In this document: piece after piece, positions 2,381 through 43,950 of the stretch
Position numbering within the stretch: the stretch's first letter is position 1
Layout of the letters: each line of letters starts with the position of its first letter
From: Burkholderiales bacterium
GTDB taxonomy: Bacteria; Pseudomonadota; Gammaproteobacteria; Burkholderiales; SG8-41
DNA length: 64,000 nucleotides
NCBI GenBank assembly: GCA_019749945.1
Contig: JAIEPF010000016.1
Span: forward strand, 93,269 to 157,268
Reading direction: 5' to 3'
Made by a program: the position numbers and the translations under genes
Notes under the pieces: generated by a model
What the model was told of the DNA's origin: nothing
Database searches by the model: none
What the model saw: only the letters and a program-made list of their open reading frames with translations

Positions 2381-3649
2381 ATGGAAGCTTTGAAGGGTGT
2401 GCGAATTCTCGACATGACCCATGTCCAGGCCGGGCCGACGTGCTCGCAGCTGCTGGCGTGGATGGGCGCCGACGTGATCAAGTTCGAACCGCCGCAGGGT
2501 GACGCGACGCGCGGCCAGCTGCGCGACGTGCCGAACGCGGACAGCCTTTATTTCACCATGTTGAACTGCAACAAGCGCTCGATCACGGTCAACATGAAAT
2601 CGGCCGAAGGCAAGACGGTATTCATCGATCTGCTCAAGAAGTGCGACATCATCATGGAGAACTTCGGCCCCGGCGTGCTCGACCGTTTCGGTTTCACCTG
2701 GGAAAAAATCCACGGGATCAATCCGAAAATCGTGATGGGCTCGATCAAGGGTTTCGGCTCCAGCGGACCGTACGCCGAGTTCAAGGCTTACGAGAACGTG
2801 GCGCAGGCGATGGGCGGCGCGATGAGCACCACCGGCATGCCGGACAGCCCGCCGTTTGTCACCGGCGCCCAGATCGGCGACTCCGGTACGGGACTGCATC
2901 TGGCGATCGGCCTGCTCGCGGCCCTGCATCAGGCCAACCGCACCGGGCAGGGGCAGTATGTCGAGGTCGCGATGATGGACGGCGTGATGAATCTGTGCCG
3001 CGTCAAATGGCGCGACCACCAGCGGCTGACCCGGCAGTCACTGGCGGAGTATTCGGTGCCGACCTACCAGGGCATGGGCGAGGTGCCGCGCGCCGGCAAT
3101 GATTCCGGCGGCGGCCAGCTCGGCAACGCGATTCACTGCAAGCCGCACGGCGCCAACGACTGGCTGTATATCGTGGTGCAGGAGGCGGTGTGGGATGCGC
3201 TGGCCAAACGCATCGGACCGGATCTCGGCATGCCGGATCTGGCCACGGATCCCAAGTTTGCGACCATCGCAGAGCGCCGCAAGAACCAGCCGCTGATGTG
3301 GACCCTGATCACCAAATTCGCCGAGAAATACACCAAGCGCGAATTCATGGCCATCCTCAATCCGCTGGATGTGCCCTGCGGCCCGATCATGTCGACCGAG
3401 GATCTGGCCAACGACGAACATATCCGCGGCCGCGACATGTATGTCGAACTCGACCACCCCCAGCGCGGCAAGTGGTGGAACGTCGGCATGCCGATCAAGC
3501 TGTCGGCCTCACCCGCGGTGATCAAACGCTCGCCGCTGCTTGGCGAACATACCGATGAAGTGCTGAAGGACGTGCTGGGTTACGGCGACGAGCAGATCGG
3601 CAAGCTGAAGACTGCAGGCGCGTTCAGCGCGCCGCCGAAGAAAAAATAA
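2381..3649 (+). CDS. frc: Formyl-CoA:oxalate CoA-transferase (CoA-transferase family III)
   Basis: MEALKGVRILDMTHVQAGPTCSQLLAWMGADVIK start, IGDSGTG catalytic Asp, RAGNDSGGGQ glycine loop. GGAGA SD before ATG 2381. Confidence 0.93.
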   Translation: MEALKGVRILDMTHVQAGPTCSQLLAWMGADVIKFEPPQGDATRGQLRDVPNADSLYFTMLNCNKRSITVNMKSAEGKTVFIDLLKKCDIIMENFGPGVLDRFGFTWEKIHGINPKIVMGSIKGFGSSGPYAEFKAYENVAQAMGGAMSTTGMPDSPPFVTGAQIGDSGTGLHLAIGLLAALHQANRTGQGQYVEVAMMDGVMNLCRVKWRDHQRLTRQSLAEYSVPTYQGMGEVPRAGNDSGGGQLGNAIHCKPHGANDWLYIVVQEAVWDALAKRIGPDLGMPDLATDPKFATIAERRKNQPLMWTLITKFAEKYTKREFMAILNPLDVPCGPIMSTEDLANDEHIRGRDMYVELDHPQRGKWWNVGMPIKLSASPAVIKRSPLLGEHTDEVLKDVLGYGDEQIGKLKTAGAFSAPPKKK

Positions 3650-3686
3650 CTTTCCGGCAATGGCATGGATTTATAGAGGATTCAGC

Positions 3687-4619
3687 ATGAAAATAGCAAT
3701 CATCGGACAGCAGGATTTTGGCAAGGAAGTGCTGGAAGCCTTTCTTGCGCGCAAGGATGAAGTCGCCGGCGTATTCTGTGCGCCGGAAAAACCGGGCGCC
3801 AAGGCCGATCCGCTGCGCACCGCCGCCGAAGCGCACGGCCTGAAGGTGTTCCAGTTCCCGTCGCTGCGGGTGCCGGAAGCGCATGACGCGCTGAAGTCGC
3901 TGAATACCGACCTCGGCGTGATGGCTTATGTGCTGCAGTTTGCGCCGGATACCTTCGTGCATCTGCCGCGCCTCGGCACGATCCAGTATCACCCCTCGCT
4001 GCTGCCGAAGTACCGCGGACCATCCTCGATCAACTGGCCGATCATCCGCGGCGACAGCAAAACCGGGCTGACCATTTTCCGTCCGAACGAAGGACTCGAC
4101 GAGGGCCCGGTGATCCTGCAGAAAACCTGCGACATCGGCCCCGACGAAACCATCGGCGAGGTGTATTTCAACAAGCTGTTCCCGATGGGCGTCAAGGCCA
4201 TGCTCGAGGCCGCCGACCTGGTGTACGCCGGCAAACACACGGAGACGGTACAGGACGAATCAAAAGCGAGTTACGAAGGCTGGTGTCGCGCCGGGGAAGC
4301 CCAGATCCATTGGGCCCAGCATGTCGATTTTGTCTACAACGTGATCCGCGGCACCAATCCGGCGCCGGGCGCCTGGACCACGCTGAACGGCAAAAAAGTG
4401 CAGATTTTTGATGCGCGCAAACATCTGTTCCGCCGTTTCGCCGATGTCGCCGGCAAAATCGGTGAGGTTTCCGAAGTCAGTGCAGGCAGTTTCAAGGTGA
4501 CGGCGCAGGGCGGTGTGATCGAAGTGCTGCGCGCGCGCGGCGAAGACGGCAAAAAACTGTCGGGCGGCGACTTCGCTCGCGCCCACGGTTTGGCAAAGGG
4601 CGCATTGCTCGGCACCTGA
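3687..4619 (+). CDS. Formyltransferase (Fmt/ALDH1L1 N-terminal-domain-like)
   Basis: YHPSLLPKYRGPSSINW folate-binding motif, GLDEG catalytic Asp, C-terminal IRGTNPAPGAW. AGAGGA SD; directly downstream of frc. Confidence 0.88.
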   Translation: MKIAIIGQQDFGKEVLEAFLARKDEVAGVFCAPEKPGAKADPLRTAAEAHGLKVFQFPSLRVPEAHDALKSLNTDLGVMAYVLQFAPDTFVHLPRLGTIQYHPSLLPKYRGPSSINWPIIRGDSKTGLTIFRPNEGLDEGPVILQKTCDIGPDETIGEVYFNKLFPMGVKAMLEAADLVYAGKHTETVQDESKASYEGWCRAGEAQIHWAQHVDFVYNVIRGTNPAPGAWTTLNGKKVQIFDARKHLFRRFADVAGKIGEVSEVSAGSFKVTAQGGVIEVLRARGEDGKKLSGGDFARAHGLAKGALLGT

Positions 4620-36293: not shown

Positions 36294-39200
36294 TCAGCCG
36301 CCGAGTTTGGCGAGCTGGGCGCGCATCTGCTCGAGCGTGGCCGAAAAGCGGGCCAGGCGTTCCTTTTCCTGGGCGACCACCAGCGGCGGCGCCTTGGCGA
36401 CAAAACTTTCGTTGGCGAGTTTGGCCCGGGCCTTGGTGGTTTCGCCGTCCAGCCGGGCGATTTCCTTGGTCAGGCGTTCGCGTTCGGCGGCAACGTCGAT
36501 TTCCACTTTCAGCATCAGCTTGAAGTCGCCGACGATGGACACCGGTGCGTCTTCATCCGGCAGGGTGTTGACGACCATGACTTCGGAAAGACGGGCCAGG
36601 TACATCAGATAGGGCGTGACGGCGCGCAATTGCGCCGCGTCACCCTGGGCCAGCAGCGGCAGTTTCTGCGACGGCGCCACGTTCATTTCACCGCGCAGGG
36701 TGCGACAGGCCGACACCAGCTGCTTCAGCAGGACGATGTGCCGTTCGGCGGCCTCGTCGATTTTCGCGGCTTCGGGTTGCGGGTATTTCTGCAGCATGAT
36801 GCTGGCGCCGCTTTTGCCGGCGAGCGGTGCCACCTTCTGCCACAGCTCCTCGGTGATGAACGGGATCACCGGATGCGCCAGGCGCAGGATGGTTTCGAGT
36901 ACACGCACCAGCGTGCGGCGCGTGCCGCGGTTTTGCGCTTCACTGCCGCCGGCGAGCTGCACCTTGGCCAATTCGAGGTACCAGTCGCAGTATTCGTCCC
37001 ATACCAGCTCGTAGATGGTGCGCGCGAGATTGTCAAAACGGTATTCGCGGTAGGCCTGCTGTGCTTCGGCTTCGGCGCGCTGCAACCGGCTGATCAGCCA
37101 GCGGTCCGCAGTCGTGAGTTCAACCGGCGCATCGGCATCGAGGCCGCTGTCGTTCAACCCGGTATCTTTGCCCTCACAGTTCATCATCACGAAGCGCGTG
37201 GCATTCCACAGCTTGTTGCAGAAATTGCGGTAACCCTCGCAGCGTTTCTGGTCGAACTTGATGTCGCGACCGAGGCTGGCGAGGCTGGCGAAAGTGAAAC
37301 GCAGTGCGTCGGTGCCGTAGGCGGGTATACCGTCGGGGAATTCGGCGCGGGTGCGTTTGGCGATGCTCTCGGCCTGTTTCGGATTCATCAGGCCGGCGGT
37401 GCGTTTGGCGATCAGCGCATCGATGCCGATGCCGTCGATCAGGTCCAGCGGGTCCAAGGTGTTGCCCTTGGACTTGGACATTTTCTGGCCTTCGGCGTCG
37501 CGCACCAGGCCGTGCACATAAACATGGTGAAACGGCACCTTGCCGGTCATGTACTTGGTGATCATCACCATGCGCGCGACCCAGAAGAAAATGATGTCGA
37601 AACCGGTGACCAGCACTGACGAAGGCAGGTAGAGATCGAGTGCCGGGTTCGATTTCGCCGGCCATTCCGGGGTCCAGTCGAGCGTGGAGAAACACCACAG
37701 CTGCGACGAGAACCAGGTGTCGAGCACATCGGGATCCTGCCGTAGCGGTTTGCCGCCCGACTGGCGCAGAGCTTCGGCTTCATCATGGGCGACGTAGATA
37801 TTGCCGGCATCGTCATGCCAGGCCGGCACCCGGTGGCCCCACCACAGCTGGCGCGAGATGCACCAGTCCTGGATGTTGTTGAGCCAGTGGTTGTAGGTGT
37901 TGATCCACTGCTCGGGGAACAGTTTGACTTCACCGCTGGCCACGGCGTCGAGGCCGAGTTTGGCCAGCGGCTCCATTTTGACAAACCACTGGCTGGTCAG
38001 CATCGGCTCGATGACAACGCCGGTGCGGTCGCCGCGCGGCACCACCATGCGGTGCGGCTTTTCCGATTCGAGCAGGCCCTGGGCCTTGAGGTCGGCGATG
38101 ATGGCGTCGCGCGCGACATAGCGGTCAAGGCCGCGATATTTTTCCGGGGCGCTGTCATTGATCGCCGCATCGAGCGTGAATATGTTCAGCTGCGGCAGCT
38201 TGTGGCGCAGGCCGACCTGGTAGTCGTTGAAATCGTGGGCGGGCGTGATCTTCACGCAGCCGGTGCCGAAGGCCTTGTCGACGTATTCATCGGCGATGAT
38301 CGGGATGGTGCGTCCGGTCAGCGGCAGCATCACCTGGCGGCCGATCATTGCGCGGTAACGTTCGTCCTCCGGATGCACCGCGACTGCGGCGTCACCGAGC
38401 AGGGTTTCCGGGCGGGTGGTGGCGACGGTGAGATGGCCGCTGCCGTCGGCCAGCGGATAACGGATCTGCCACAGCTTGCCGTCTTCTTCCTCCGACTGTA
38501 CTTCGAGGTCGGAAATTACCGTGTGCAGCACCGGGTCCCAGTTCGACAGGCGCAGGCCGCGATAGATCAGGCCATCGCGGTAGAGTTTGACGAAGGTGTG
38601 GGTGACGAGTTTGGCCAGTGGCTCGTCCATGGTGAAACGTTCGCGTTCCCAGTCACAGGAGGCGCCGAGGCGGCGCATCTGGCGTGTGATGGTCGATCCG
38701 GACTGTTCTTTCCATGCCCAGACTTTTTTGATGAATTCGTCGCGGCCCAGCGCGTTGCGGGACTGGCCTTGTTGCTCCAGCTGGCGGGTCACCACCATTT
38801 CGGTGGCGATGCCGGCGTGGTCGGTGCCGGGCTGCCACAGCGTGTTGTCGCCGCTCATGCGGTGATAACGCGTCAGGCCATCCATGATGGTCTGGTTGAA
38901 GGCGTGGCCCATGTGCAACACGCCGGTGACGTTCGGCGGCGGCAGCTGGATGCAGTAGGCCTTGGTATTGGTCTGGTCGAGTCCGGCCTTGAAGTAGCCG
39001 CTTTTTTCCCATAGCGGATACCAGCGCGACTCGATGGTCGCCGGTTCAAAACTTTTCGGGAGTTCCATGTGTGGTGTTGCCGGAGGGGGTGCGGGAGCGT
39101 TCGCGATTATACCGGAGGAGGTTTGTTGTCCCTCCGCCGTGGGCGCCTGCAGTTGTCTGAGTTGCGCCTGCAGGGTTTCCGCGACCGTCGTCCGCACCAG

Positions 39201-39602
39201 TTCGGCGATGCCGGATTGCAGCTCGCCGGTCACGCGTGACAGGGCCTGTTCCAGCGCGGCGCCGATTTCCGGCAGATAACGTTCCTCCACGACTTTGGCG
39301 ATCTGGTCGTTGAGTCCGCGTTTGATCCGGAGATGGACTGCGTGTTCGATGTTCTGGGCCTGTACGCGGGAGATAACAGGTGAGGCTGCGGGCCCGTCGG
39401 TTGCGCGCGGCGGATCCGGCCGCGGTTCCGCGCGGGGCAGCACTTCGCCTTCGATGACAATGTCGGTCAGGGTCGGAATTTCCGCGCCGGGATCGGTTGC
39501 GGCGGGCGCGGCAGCAGGTGCTTGGCGATGCCGCTGCAGCAGGGCATCGGCACGCTGCAGCACGTCGTCGGCGTTGTCGCCTGGGGGAGGGGTATCGGCC
39601 AT
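36294..39602 (-). CDS. valS: Valine--tRNA ligase with in-frame 178-aa N-terminal extension (core starts MELPKS at 39068)
   Basis: [14 protein letters not shown] (HIGH), [18 protein letters not shown]-terminal coiled coil. No stop between ATG 39602 and 39068. Confidence 0.93.
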
Positions 39603-39673
39603 GGGTGCGCTGATGGTAACGGACGGGCGGTGTTGCACTCAACCCGTGCCGCGGCGCCCGGCCTCTCCCGTCA

Positions 39674-40102
39674 TTAAGAGGATGCGCCCGACAGGTCGTG
39701 GGTGCGGATGGTGTAACCGCGGTCGCGGTAGAACTTGTAGCGGCTGCGGGCCTGGACCCGGTCAGCATCATCGCGGGTGACGATTTCCGCCAGGCGCTGG
39801 TAGCGGCTGAAAAAAGCCGGCCATTCGCTGTGCAGGTTGATCAGCATTTCATCGTGCAGATGCGTCTCGCCGCTGCTGTCGATCAGCACCGGCGTGACGG
39901 CGGCCAGTTTGTCGTCCGGCGCGCAGTGCGGCAGGAAGCCGGTGGCCGGCACCGTCCACAGCAGCCGGTCGAGGCGCGACGCGGTGTCGTGATCCGGGCA
40001 GTACAGGGTCACGCGCAGGCCGTGACTGCGCGCCTTCGCCGTCAGCCGGCACGCGGTATGCAGCCGGTCGCCGGCCTGGGTGTAAAAATCGATCTGCGTC
40101 AT
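39674..40102 (-). CDS. holC: DNA polymerase III chi subunit
   Basis: MTQIDFY, LDRLLW...FLPH, ARSRYKFYRDRGY; pepA-holC-valS synteny. Confidence 0.95.
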   Translation of the reverse strand: MTQIDFYTQAGDRLHTACRLTAKARSHGLRVTLYCPDHDTASRLDRLLWTVPATGFLPHCAPDDKLAAVTPVLIDSSGETHLHDEMLINLHSEWPAFFSRYQRLAEIVTRDDADRVQARSRYKFYRDRGYTIRTHDLSGASS

Positions 40103-40120
40103 CGACGGAGTTGCTGCAGA

Positions 40121-41614
40121 TCAGCGTTTGTCCGCCCGGTTGATCAGGAATTGCGTCAGCAGCGGCACCGGGCGGCCGGTAGAGCCTTTTTCGCGTCCGG
40201 ATTTCCACGCGGTGCCGGCGACGTCGAGATGCGCCCAGTGATATTTTTTGGTGAAGCGGGAGAGGAAACAGGCCGCGGTCACGGCACCGGCGGGGCGGCC
40301 GCCGATGTTGGCGAAATCGGCGAAGTTGCTGCGCAGCTGTTCCTGGTATTCATCGTGCAGCGGCAGGTGCCAGGCGCCGTCGCCGGCGATTTCACCCGCG
40401 GCCAGCACTTCGCGCGCCAGCGGATCGTTGTTGGCAAACAGCCCGCTCACCACGTGGCCGAGCGCGATGACGCAGGCGCCGGTGAGTGTGGCGATGTCGA
40501 TGACCGCTGCCGGCTGGTAACGCTCGGCGTAGGTCAGTGCATCGCACAGGATCAGGCGGCCTTCGGCGTCGGTGTTGAGGATTTCCACGGTCTGGCCCGA
40601 CATGCTGGTGACGATGTCGCCGGGCTTGGTGGCGCGCCCGCCGGGCATGTTTTCGGTGGCGGGAATGATGCCGACCATGTTCACCGGCAGTTTCATCTCG
40701 GCGATGGCCTTGATGGTGCCCAGCACGCTGCCGGCGCCGCTCATGTCGAACTTCATTTCGTCCATTTCCGGCGCCGGCTTGATCGAAATGCCACCGGTGT
40801 CGAAAGTGACGCCCTTGCCGACCAGCACCACCGGTTTTTGCGACTTCGGCCCGTTGCTGTATTCGATGACGATCAGTTTCGGCGGCTCGCTGCTGCCGGC
40901 CGCCACCGACAACAGCGTGTTCATGCCGAGTTTTTTCATGTCGGCGCGTTCGAGCACCTGGATTTTCAGGCGGTAGTGTTTGGCGAGTTTGCGCGCTGCG
41001 TCGGCGAGGTAGCTTGGCGTGCAGACATTGCCCGGCAGGTTGCCGAGGTCGCGGGCGAGGTTCACGCCATGGGCGAGGGCGAGTCCGCGACTGAGGCCGC
41101 GTGCGGCGCGTTTGACGTCGCCCTGGGCCTTTACCGATATCACGGCCTTGCTCAATGCCGGTGCGGCTTTTTCCGGCTTGCTTTTCATCTGTTCGAAACG
41201 GTAGATCGCGGTGCGGGCTGCGCAGGCGGCGTGCATCACCTTCCATTCGACGTCGCGCCGGCTGACGCTGAGCTCGGCAAAATGCAGTTCGACATCAGCC
41301 GTTCCGGTATTGGCGAGGGCATTGATGGCTGCGCTGACGCTGCGGCGGAACTGTTTATCCCCGAATTCGGCTTGCGGGCCCAGCCCGACCAGCAGTACGC
41401 GCGCGCTGGCGATGCCGGGTACGTCGTGCAGCAGCAGCGTGGTGCCGATGAGGCCTTCCATGTCGCCGCGTTGCAGCAGCCGCTTCAGGTAACCTTTGGT
41501 GCTGCGATCGAGCGCCGTGGCGGCGCCGCTGAGTGTTCTGCCGGCATACACGCCGACCACGGTGCAGCCGCTGGCGTTGCGGCCCGGTACAAGGGGTTTT
41601 ATGCTAAATTCCAC
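40121..41614 (-). CDS. pepA: Leucyl aminopeptidase
   Basis: [33 protein letters not shown]. Confidence 0.96.
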
Positions 41615-41800
41615 GCGTCAACTCCTGTGCGTATTACGAGCTTGTCAAGAACATGTTGGCGGTCAGTGTCGCGCGGCATTTTGTGCGGAGCCGGCCATCG
41701 TGACCATCGCTGACTTTTGGCGGCATGCAAGGCAACACACCGGTATCCAAAGTCGTTCATTGATTATCTGCGCGTTCTTTTCAAAAAGCAAAATGCCGGC

Positions 41801-42880
41801 ATGATTTTCCGGGCTGCATTGCTGCGCGAACTTGCGACCTCGGCGGTGGCGATATTCCTGGTGCTGCTCGGCATTTCCATTACCACCCAGCTGGTGCGCC
41901 TGCTCGGCCAGGCAGCCAGCGGATTGATCACGTCCACGGGTGTCGTTGCATTGCTCGGGTTTACGCTGGTCGGCTACCTGCCGATCCTGCTGTCGGTGAC
42001 CCTGTTCATCGCTGTGCTGATGACGCTGACCCGCAGTTACCGGGATTCGGAAATGGTGGTGTGGTTTTCCTGCGGTCTGGGGCTGACCCGCTGGATCCGC
42101 CCGGTGCTGACGTTTTCCCTGCCGCTGGTGCTGACGATTGCGCTGCTGTCGCTGCTGCTGTCGCCCTGGGCCGTGCAGAAGGCGGAGGATTTCCGCCGGC
42201 AGATGGACAGCCGGGACGAAGTGGCGCAGGTGACCCCTGGTGTATTTCACGAGTCACGCCGGGCCGACCGGGTCTACCTGGTCGAGGAGGTTGCCGGCAA
42301 GGCGAACCTGGTGGCCAATGTGTTTGTCAGTTCGACACAGAACGGCAAGCTGGGCGTGATGGTTGCGCAAAGCGGTTTCCAGGAAACCGCTGCCAACGGC
42401 GACCGTTTCCTGGTGCTGCTCAACGGCCGGCGCTACGAGGGAGAGCCGGGCTCCCCCGAATACAAGATTTTCGAGTTCGGACGTTATGCGATGCGCATCG
42501 AGACCGCGGAATCCGCGTTGCGCGCACCCACCACCAAGACCATGTCGACCCTGGAGCTGATAAGTGATCCCCAGCCGCGCAACCTCGGCGAGCTGTCCTG
42601 GCGTGTGGGCCTGCCGGCGAGCGCGCTGATTTTATGCCTGCTCGCCATTCCGCTGTCGTTCGTGAATCCCGGGGCGGGCCGTTCAATGAACATCGTGCTG
42701 GCAATCCTGGTGTACATGATTTACAGCAACCTGCTGTCGATCATGCAGGCATCGATCGCGCAGTCCCGGATTGATTTCCTTGCCGGCATGTGGGGTGTGC
42801 ATGTCGCCATGGTGCTGCTGCTGCTGGGGATGTTCTACCAGAGGTTGTCGGTGTTTTCGGTCTGGCGGTTGCTGCGGTGA
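41801..42880 (+). CDS. lptF: LPS export permease LptF
   Basis: MIFRAALLRE, RSYRDSEMVVW, LAIPLSFVNP; divergent from pepA. Confidence 0.93.
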   Translation: MIFRAALLRELATSAVAIFLVLLGISITTQLVRLLGQAASGLITSTGVVALLGFTLVGYLPILLSVTLFIAVLMTLTRSYRDSEMVVWFSCGLGLTRWIRPVLTFSLPLVLTIALLSLLLSPWAVQKAEDFRRQMDSRDEVAQVTPGVFHESRRADRVYLVEEVAGKANLVANVFVSSTQNGKLGVMVAQSGFQETAANGDRFLVLLNGRRYEGEPGSPEYKIFEFGRYAMRIETAESALRAPTTKTMSTLELISDPQPRNLGELSWRVGLPASALILCLLAIPLSFVNPGAGRSMNIVLAILVYMIYSNLLSIMQASIAQSRIDFLAGMWGVHVAMVLLLLGMFYQRLSVFSVWRLLR

Positions 42881-43950
42881 GGACGCTGCGCAGCTATGTG
42901 GCGCGGGAAGTCGTGATGGCGACGCTGCTGGTGTTTGTCGCGCTGCTGCTGCTGTTCGCGTTTTTTGATCTGGTGGAACAGATGAAGGATCTCGGGCGCG
43001 GCGGCTACCAGCTGCGCCACATCGTGTTGCACGTGCTGTTGTCCGCGCCGAACCATGTCTATGAGCTGTTTCCGATTGCCGCGTTGATCGGCACGCTGTT
43101 TGCGCTGGCGCAGCTGGTCGCCAGTTCTGAATACACGGTGATGCGTGCCTCGGGCGTGTCCCTGGCGCGCATGGTGGGGGCTCTTGCCACGGTGGGCGCG
43201 GCGTTCGGCGTGCTGACATTTATAGTCGGCGAATTTGTTGCGCCCCCCGCGGAGCAGTACGCGCAGCGGCTGCGTTCGCAGGCGATTTCCGGCATTGTGG
43301 CGCAGGAATTCCGCTCCGGTTTGTGGATCAAGGACGGCACCGCGTTTGTGAATGTTCTGGAGGTCACGCCCTCCGGCGGGCTCAAGGGGGTGCGAATTTA
43401 CGATTTTGATGCCGACTACCGCCTGCGCAATCTCCGGTTTGCGGCAAGTGCGGAGTACAAAGGCGCCAATCGCTGGGAGTTGATGGATGTCGCACAAACC
43501 ACTTTTGAAGGGCTGAAAACGCGGGTGAGCAAAATTGAGAGCATGGGCTGGCAGTCGGTGCTGGAGCCGGCACTGCTCACCGTGTTGCTGGTCAAGCCCG
43601 AAAAAATGTCGGCGTGGAGCCTGTACTCGTATTCTCAGCATCTCAAGGAAAACCGGCAGAAAGCGCTGCGTTACGAGATCGCCCTTTGGATCAAGTTGCT
43701 CTATCCGGTGGCGGTGCTGGTGATGATGGTGCTGGCGCTGCCGTTTGCCTATTTCCAGAACCGTCAGGGCGGCGTCGGCGCCAAGCTGTTTGCCGGCATC
43801 ATGCTGGGACTGGCATTTCATTTCCTCAATCGCCTGTTCGGGCACCTGGGCCTGCTTTATGACTGGCCGCCGTTCACCAGCGCGGTGGTGCCGACGCTGC
43901 TGTTTCTCAGCATCGCGCTGGGCATGATGTGGTGGCAGGAGCGGCGCTGA
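42877..43950 (+). CDS. lptG: LPS export permease LptG
   Basis: GTGA overlap with lptF; SSEYTVMRASGVS, GLWIKDG, ALPFAY. Confidence 0.93.
   Translation: MRTLRSYVAREVVMATLLVFVALLLLFAFFDLVEQMKDLGRGGYQLRHIVLHVLLSAPNHVYELFPIAALIGTLFALAQLVASSEYTVMRASGVSLARMVGALATVGAAFGVLTFIVGEFVAPPAEQYAQRLRSQAISGIVAQEFRSGLWIKDGTAFVNVLEVTPSGGLKGVRIYDFDADYRLRNLRFAASAEYKGANRWELMDVAQTTFEGLKTRVSKIESMGWQSVLEPALLTVLLVKPEKMSAWSLYSYSQHLKENRQKALRYEIALWIKLLYPVAVLVMMVLALPFAYFQNRQGGVGAKLFAGIMLGLAFHFLNRLFGHLGLLYDWPPFTSAVVPTLLFLSIALGMMWWQERR

Follow-up and report, generated by a model that had tools for sequence, protein, structure and literature searches.

A conserved in-frame fusion of a DUF2486-like, post-holC protein to valyl-tRNA synthetase in a genus of Burkholderiales

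We analysed a 64,000-nucleotide stretch of DNA from a Burkholderiales bacterium (assembly GCA_019749945.1, contig JAIEPF010000016.1, positions 93,269 to 157,268 of the forward strand; hereafter the window), in which valS, the gene of valyl-tRNA synthetase (ValRS), is preceded in the same open reading frame (ORF) by 178 codons of another protein, here called X. The X family resembles DUF2486 and is most commonly encoded by a small gene of its own behind holC, the gene of DNA polymerase III chi. Overall, we find a real, conserved and recurrent fusion of this post-holC protein to the only ValRS of the organism; two isoforms are probably made from it, and kinship of X with PopZ is unsupported. That the fusion is true and inherited is practically certain in our judgement. 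The fuller statement, in which an inherited fusion joins a selected, adaptor-like X to ValRS across an embedded valS -10 box and yields two isoforms, we regard as probable. The open frame had been pointed out, and X likened to PopZ, in an earlier reading made by a model without database searches (the sequence-only reading).

Results

The fusion is inherited and conserved in the genus

The source DNA is a metagenome-assembled draft of an uncultured betaproteobacterium in 40 contigs, with a genome completeness of 95.8%. As first read, the 178 codons run free of stops into MELPKSFEP, and we confirmed this at 39602-39069 on the reverse strand. For a joint of 26 codons in DNA of 61.5% G+C, the chance of meeting no stop is ~0.46 by an estimate from base composition, so the open joint alone is unremarkable, and conservation is what exceeds chance. 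X was present in 22 of the 24 other genomes of the genus, with zero stops within the matches. Open frames of 1101-1159 amino acids (aa) were found in 17 of 23 genus rows, our own genome counted, and five of the six shorter rows (L003, L007, L009, L014 and L017) read from X to the HMGH motif of ValRS in one frame. A search of named records added 34 loci, all from metagenome-assembled Burkholderiales or from entries called "Betaproteobacteria bacterium". Among the 54 genus loci combined, 52 read open from X into ValRS, and L049, which was skipped by the search motif, is also open; deduplication leaves 36 distinct sequences, 35 of them open. Many insertions and deletions on either side of a conserved element make the joint vary in length, and in the genus every one of them is a multiple of three. 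Public gene callers made proteins of 1079-1226 aa in 30 of the 38 longer cases, and the product is called valyl-tRNA synthetase wherever it is named.

The ValRS behind X is complete, with Pfam matches to tRNA-synt_1 (E 3e-136) and to Anticodon_1 and Val_tRNA-synt_C (other E-values 8.2e-41 and 5.2e-20), and the signatures HMGH (as LHMGHAF) and KMSKS (as KMSKSKGN) are readable in the translation. Both X and valS are single-copy in the genome; a second valS match, with 34% identity over 200 residues, is another class I enzyme.

The sequence-only reading had allowed for a recent stop-codon loss or an assembly error. An artefact of this kind, whether from assembly or binning, from a very recent loss of the stop or from a chance frame in which only the short ValRS is real, would find some room in a metagenome-assembled draft of 40 contigs. 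Chance frames also occur in this genome: a frame of 727 aa elsewhere crosses another promoter at another CCGATATAAT site, running over MFS-like and dehydrogenase-like genes; it is plainly spurious and no second fusion. Against an artefact stand the in-frame arrangement itself, repeated in 35 of 36 distinct genus assemblies and in several other families, and the purifying selection on X (dN/dS, the ratio of nonsynonymous to synonymous substitution rates, of 0.12-0.21), a member of a family of 1,283 clusters. The search for the same fusion in relatives, which had been proposed as a check, thus refutes recent stop loss and assembly error, and we consider an artefact exceedingly improbable.

X is a selected domain of adaptor-like build

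Selection was estimated pairwise in the genus by the Nei-Gojobori method on 35 of the 36 distinct sequences, the truncated L003 being excluded. The dN/dS was 0.21 in the N-terminal helix of X, 0.16 in the motif region and 0.12 in the long helix, compared with 0.14 in the first 200 codons of ValRS; it was 0.41 in the disordered tract and 0.53 in the joint. Purifying selection on the conserved segments of X is therefore as strong as that on ValRS (0.12-0.21 vs 0.14), and, as judged from these substitution patterns, X is a functional, selected part of the protein.

An AlphaFold2 (AF2) model built on a 20-row alignment gave a helix at residues 10-26, a predicted local distance difference test score (pLDDT) below 50 over most of residues 28-73, and one helix at residues 79-152 with pLDDT above 94. 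The layout first described, with a short N-terminal helix, a disordered tract containing IPTLTDIV and C-terminal helices, is borne out by this model, the C-terminal part being a single helix. The hydrophobic period of this long helix is ~3.9 residues vs the 3.5 residues of a classical coiled coil. Such a build, as modelled, suggests an adaptor, with short conserved elements that would grip a partner and a long helix that would bundle with itself or with a partner. Because HolC (chi) and ValRS are the steady neighbours of X, they are the first candidates for such partners.

X belongs to a widespread family related to DUF2486

The X-family profile matched 194 of 401 sampled genomes of the order; this survey takes in the unpublished genomes G226, G314 and G399, and the class survey below takes in the unpublished G679, and no claim depends solely on them. 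In a 50%-identity library the family amounts to 1,283 clusters at E<=0.001, mostly of 130-170 aa. P43 and L45 never vary in a set of 85 diverse members, and D19, L21 and T46 hardly do. X matched no model of NCBIfam, PHROGs or Pfam, and the Pfam and NCBIfam searches were equally negative on its outgroup relatives. The commonest arrangement is pepA-holC-X-valS with X as a separate gene; by motif scans, valS follows X in 13 of 20 unfused loci sampled. Outside the genus, the stop of holC and the start of X overlap or lie <=15 nucleotides (nt) apart in 14 of 15 pairs (derived by hand from the coordinates, the start in L082 being uncertain).

The claim that a separate small gene with an IPxLT motif, akin to DUF2486, follows holC in other bacteria proved right. 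By hhalign, the X family aligned with nine DUF2486 (PF10667) members at a probability of 97.1% (E 4.8e-11) over 78 columns, on the C-terminal helices. One ORF (in G245) is matched by both the X profile and PF10667, PF10667 weakly matches 5 of the 85 family members (best E 0.00096), and 14 of 30 language-model neighbours of X fall in clusters in which a minority of the proteins, at most 27%, bear DUF2486. X itself gave no match to PF10667 at E<=1, and so stays below the gathering cut-off of 22 bits; a PF10667 scan of its own genome found nothing at the X locus, the lone match being an unrelated 33-aa frame at 14 bits. Among the 151 genomes sampled from the order one has DUF2486, and in the family of that genome 11 of 41 do. 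By these comparisons X is remotely related to DUF2486 but falls outside it at the Pfam threshold.

DUF2486, an uncharacterised family of Burkholderiaceae, is like X in standing directly after pepA-holC, in its IPTLTD motif (sometimes repeated), in its long disordered tract and in its C-terminal helices. The DUF2486 proteins seen differ in that they start with IPTLTD and have no counterpart of the N-terminal DALLxRHR helix of X, and at the DUF2486 loci seen, unlike here, valS does not lie behind and none is fused. A shorter form of X that lacks the N-terminal helix occurs in other orders of the class (22 of 250 genomes; hhalign probability to the X family 97.9%). The idea that the N-terminal helix is tied to adjacency with valS was dropped, as short gammaproteobacterial forms without the helix precede valS or are fused to it.

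Several relatives (L086 in G432, L065, L072, L073, L077, L078 and L025) repeat IPxLTD two to four times within the disordered tract, which is what would be expected of a multivalent ligand motif. In another family, f6 (e.g., G029:C1:1133283-1133471, G344, G267 and G090), only the N-terminal module of X matches (profile positions ~3-66), in ORFs of 437-601 aa. Two further matches were set aside: a search of the PDB with X returned a Cox6b row as its sole match (E 5.5e-05), over the Pro/Ala-rich part and taken as compositional, and a sub-threshold Pfam row to Anthrax-tox_M (E 0.034) on one outgroup X protein was taken as chance.

A conserved -10 box lies within the translated joint

The conserved element of the joint is CTCCGGTATAAT, which contains TATAAT; its presence within the joint is a new observation of this analysis. 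Among the first 20 genus loci CTCCGGTATAAT was found in 19, with variable flanks, and the twentieth has CTCCGCTATAAT. When 196 conserved amino-acid columns were compared over 36 sequences, three columns used a single codon throughout, and two of these are the TCC (S163) and ATA (I165) codons of this element. ATA is a rare Ile codon, used 63 times among 662 Ile codons in the genus sequences, and 35 of those 63 stand at the I165 column; in the long ORF of the window it makes up 3 of 55 Ile codons. Of the 23 fused loci compared across families, 20 carry TATAAT, always in the frame nnT-ATA-ATn and 40-103 nt upstream of the L-[AP]-K-S motif with which ValRS begins (in the window, its L is the third valS codon). 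The residue preceding Ile-Ile or Ile-Met differs between these families (G, A, S, R, P or V), a pattern that agrees with a conserved base, T, and not with a conserved amino acid. TATAAT is also present in the spacer between X and valS in 11 of 15 unfused relatives, in other frames and often 2-20 nt past the X stop, so that the path to a fusion is very short. Outside the genus, many lineages have a G+C-rich stretch and TTTTC, in that order, behind the box.

TATAAT occurs three times on the two strands of the 64-kb window. The sequence CCGNTATAAT has 11 sites genome-wide vs 3 for a reversed control, and 10 of the 11, the valS site included, are followed at 6-110 nt by the start of a long ORF on the same strand, e.g., that of rpsF-like and transketolase-like genes. 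The geometry of the valS site, at 37 nt, matches that of the others. At two of the CCGNTATAAT sites in this genome (L158 and L164, on contigs C26 and C35), the ATG of a long ORF comes 6 nt past the hexamer. The spacing suggests that the organism may use leaderless mRNAs.

A second, promoter-like pair of hexamers ends 10 nt before the start of X (Table 1). Genus members with a holC-X spacer of ~70 nt keep GGTTGAG(C/T)...TCCGTTA(A/C)CAT; the remaining members lack the pair, and their X starts 15-25 nt after holC. TTGAG(C/T), 18 nt and TA(A/C)CAT may form a promoter that gives a nearly leaderless mRNA for the long isoform. A GTG at 39638 would lengthen the long ORF to 1114 aa, against 1102 aa from the ATG at 39602. 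A search of 38700-40200 against Rfam found no family match.

The fusion recurs outside the genus

Open frames of at least 1000 aa cover the X match in 24 of the 194 X-positive genomes of the order (one of them the unpublished G226). By inspection, X and ValRS lie in one frame in families f1, f7, f9, f18, f32, f39 and f52, and also in two genomes of other gammaproteobacterial orders (L133 and L135). At least six further families of the order share the fusion. On a maximum-likelihood tree of the N-terminal part of ValRS with 41 rows, from which L066, L082 and L110 were omitted as too short, the fused state needs 8 changes, at least 5 of them forced by well-supported branches; 3 of 500 label shuffles matched the observed number of changes. 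On this tree the fused state has been gained or lost several times.

The features of the locus are collected in Table 1. Divergent from pepA lie lptF- and lptG-like permease genes (41717-43950, forward strand), recognised from their translations only.

Table 1 Features of the X-valS locus, in window coordinates
Feature	Position	Strand	Remarks
pepA	41614-40121	-	upstream of holC
holC (DNA polymerase III chi), 142 aa	39674..40102	-	PF04364, E 1.5e-40; adjoins the long ORF on its upstream side
Promoter-like pair TTGAGT (39642-39637), 18 nt, TACCAT (39618-39613)	39613..39642	-	putative; ends 10 nt before X start; no call by consensus scanner
Long ORF, X fused to ValRS, 1102 aa from conserved ATG	36294..39602	-	sole valS of the genome
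X domain, 178 codons, post-holC / DUF2486-like family	39069..39602	-	acidic, isoelectric point 4.9
N-terminal helix, residues 10-26	39525..39575	-	D19, L21 nearly invariant in family
IPTLTD short linear motif in disordered tract, residues 42-47	39462..39479	-	P43, L45 invariant in 85 family members
Single long amphipathic helix, residues 79-152 (74 residues)	39147..39368	-	AF2; periodicity; dN/dS 0.12
Pro/Ala-rich joint, residues 153-178	39069..39146	-	length and sequence variable; dN/dS 0.53
CTCCGGTATAAT, candidate valS -10 box (TATAAT = 39111-39106)	39106..39117	-	read S-G-I-I by long frame; 37 nt to valS ATG
Canonical valS, 924 aa, ATG 39068 (MELPKSFEP)	36294..39068	-	ancestral start Met = M179 of long form, nearly invariant

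Discussion

We propose that both a long and an ordinary ValRS are made from this locus, a model that we hold to be probable. In most Burkholderiales (in the GTDB sense) X is a small gene between holC and valS. Here, with the loss of its stop codon, the frame would have run through the short spacer into valS, and the spacer would have been retained together with the valS promoter, whose TATAAT is now translated as (x)-Ile-Ile with its nucleotides frozen. A valS promoter that survives in the joint means that the locus should give two products. The long X-ValRS of 1102 aa would come from transcripts started upstream, either with holC or at the promoter-like site just before X, and the ordinary ValRS of 924 aa from an mRNA begun a few bases past the internal -10 box and using the conserved Met; that the box fires to give this short mRNA is what its position and conservation suggest. 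The long isoform would put a fraction of ValRS where X acts. In our literature searches no paper was found on an X-ValRS fusion; those on DUF2486 returned nothing related, and those on PopZ together with valS returned only synteny.

Residues 179-1102 are like a canonical bacterial ValRS of the E. coli or Thermus type, with HMGH, KMSKS, the editing insertion, the anticodon-binding domain and the C-terminal tRNA-binding arm, whereas the N-terminal addition of 178 residues comes from another family and the Pro/Ala-rich linker contains the gene's own -10 box. Aminoacyl-tRNA synthetases with appended domains are known, an example being the N-terminal extension of eukaryotic ValRS, as are genes that yield two isoforms through an internal promoter. 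By analogy with these, the protein combines an essential synthetase with a non-catalytic N-terminal module, and long and short forms may come from one gene. Unlike them, the module belongs to an uncharacterised bacterial family and would have been acquired by read-through from the upstream neighbour across a promoter, and the state is evolutionarily labile.

Several observations weigh against this explanation. No Shine-Dalgarno sequence was seen before the ATG of X or that of valS, nor in unfused relatives. No -35 hexamer is recognisable before TATAAT, the best candidates matching 1-3 of 6 positions in all but one locus, and a consensus promoter scanner reported no promoter in 38800-41800, its silence being explained by the absent -35 hexamer; UAUAAU could instead act at the RNA level. 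Two loci of family f32 (L074 and L075) have neither the internal Met nor TATAAT, and L025 of family f9 lacks the internal Met and probably TATAAT as well, so by their sequences the two-isoform model is not valid for all fused forms. In these three loci the long form may be the only ValRS, and, judged from their reading frames, X does not block the enzyme in such long-only families. One genus locus, L038, has a single in-frame stop in the joint, located after TATAAT; together with a state that toggled at least 5 times, it leaves room for fused and unfused forms that may be nearly equivalent. Upkeep of the frame is also no proof of advantage, as ribosomes put out of frame by a frameshift would run over the valS start, which alone could select against frameshifts. 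An alternative is a fusion that is tolerated as a by-product and itself does nothing, X working with ValRS attached and valS keeping its promoter. The short step between the two states speaks for it, since the X stop of unfused relatives lies 2-20 nt before TATAAT and a single change fuses the frames; so do the repeated changes on the tree, the reversion of L038 through a stop in the joint and the weak constraint on the joint (dN/dS 0.53). Yet 35 of 36 distinct genus sequences and all inspected genomes of f1 and f7 hold the frame through many indels, two families (f32 and probably f9) have since lost the internal Met and the promoter so that the long form may then be the only ValRS, and the fusion to ValRS recurs in distant orders. 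We consider a mere by-product possible, though unlikely.

What X does with ValRS attached is a separate matter, and two specific partners or counterparts were weighed. The sequence-only reading had proposed that the X family is the beta- and gammaproteobacterial counterpart of PopZ and that, through the fusion, ValRS is anchored to a polar scaffold or condensate. The parallels that it drew hold as far as they go. The layouts are alike, running from a conserved N-terminal helix through a disordered tract that is acidic and rich in Pro to a helical C-terminal part; the AF2 model agrees with this, but such a three-part layout is generic for adaptors and not diagnostic. The positions are alike as well: popZ was said to lie often just upstream of valS, and of the 16 PopZ loci examined 13 have valS <=900 nt downstream; one report places popZ upstream of valS in Agrobacterium and Caulobacter (PMC5686542). 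In a phylum sample of 201 genomes 44 have PopZ and none of the Burkholderiales rows does, so the two families may replace each other, and the best hhalign alignments, though non-significant, pair their C-terminal helices. Sequence comparison gave the idea no support. DUF2497 (PF10691), the PopZ model, matched neither X, nor five outgroup X proteins, nor the genome at this locus, nor any of the 85 family members, although the Caulobacter genome, the positive control, scored above the cut-off; a sub-threshold match elsewhere in our genome falls on a 502-aa ORF that is unlike PopZ in length and build and peptidase-like by sequence, and was discarded as spurious. The profile-profile comparison that had been suggested as a check came out in favour of DUF2486, as given above, and against PopZ: with 13 PopZ proteins, hhalign gave 0.8% (E 0.073) for the X family, 4.3% (E 0.0096) for the DUF2486 members and 3.9% (E 0.011) for the short gammaproteobacterial form. 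In its model X has one helix of 74 residues with a 3.9-residue period, vs the several short helices that PMC5686542 describes for PopZ, and X is tied to holC, whereas a HolC-like ORF lies upstream in 0 of 14 popZ loci. A very remote link between X and PopZ is conceivable but unproven on such alignments, and a PopZ counterpart that tethers ValRS is in our view highly doubtful. The other candidate is chi: X could be a HolC partner, e.g., one that imitates the SSB C-terminal tail internally or takes the place of psi, with ValRS a mere passenger through its neighbouring gene. Adjacency of holC and X is the most constant feature of the family, even where valS lies elsewhere, and DUF2486 follows pepA-holC in G060; the DUF2486 loci scanned (L028 and L083-L092) have no ValRS frame by the HMGH motif, and the tight packing of holC and X outside the genus has been noted above. 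E. coli chi binds the C-terminal tip of SSB, and the acidic residues and IP-x-L of X resemble the tip of this genome's SSB, DDMDDDIPF; the ligand-like repetition of the motif two to four times in some relatives would suit such a role, and psi (PF03603) was not found at E<=10 in our genome, which is 95.8% complete. However, the motif of X is internal, whereas the E. coli SSB tip requires a free C-terminal carboxylate, and the fusions seen are to ValRS and none to HolC. The distribution of psi carries no weight, with psi in 12 and X in 22 of 250 class genomes and an overlap of 0 vs ~1 expected by chance, and Pfam scans of X and of the outgroup X proteins gave no PF03603 row that would make X itself a psi. 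A chi partner with ValRS as passenger therefore seems improbable.

Outside these comparisons, one locus of another family of the phylum (L137; G490:C147:29000-33600, ORF 2960-4600, reverse strand) has, immediately before valS, a gene for a protein of more than 546 aa. Acidic repeats of the EEEDxEEEEAIG type make up almost all of this protein, and its C-terminal motif is PopZ-like (a weak DUF2497 match, E 7e-7); it has the look of a much enlarged PopZ relative at the corresponding place.

A broader possibility is that X is a scaffold or adaptor that links ValRS to another machine, either as a PopZ-like, self-assembling organiser in the place that popZ takes before valS or as a chi/SSB-linked replisome adaptor that docks through its IPxL motif, which is like the SSB tail. 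We put this forward as a speculation with a small chance of being right. If it were true, the recurrent fusions would be a "Rosetta stone" for a sub-population of ValRS deliberately placed at that site, and the conserved promoter within the joint would govern how much enzyme is tethered and how much stays free. The popZ-valS parallel in Alphaproteobacteria is a testable hint only.

The locus is a clean natural case of a coding frame that crosses a working-looking promoter, in which the nucleotide constraint shows as an odd conserved Ile-Ile with a rare codon. It also carries a warning for annotation, as database entries for "ValRS" of ~1100 aa probably represent two proteins. For the X family, which is widespread and has neither a Pfam or NCBIfam model nor a solved relative, the repeated fusion to ValRS and the tight packing behind holC provide a first functional lead.

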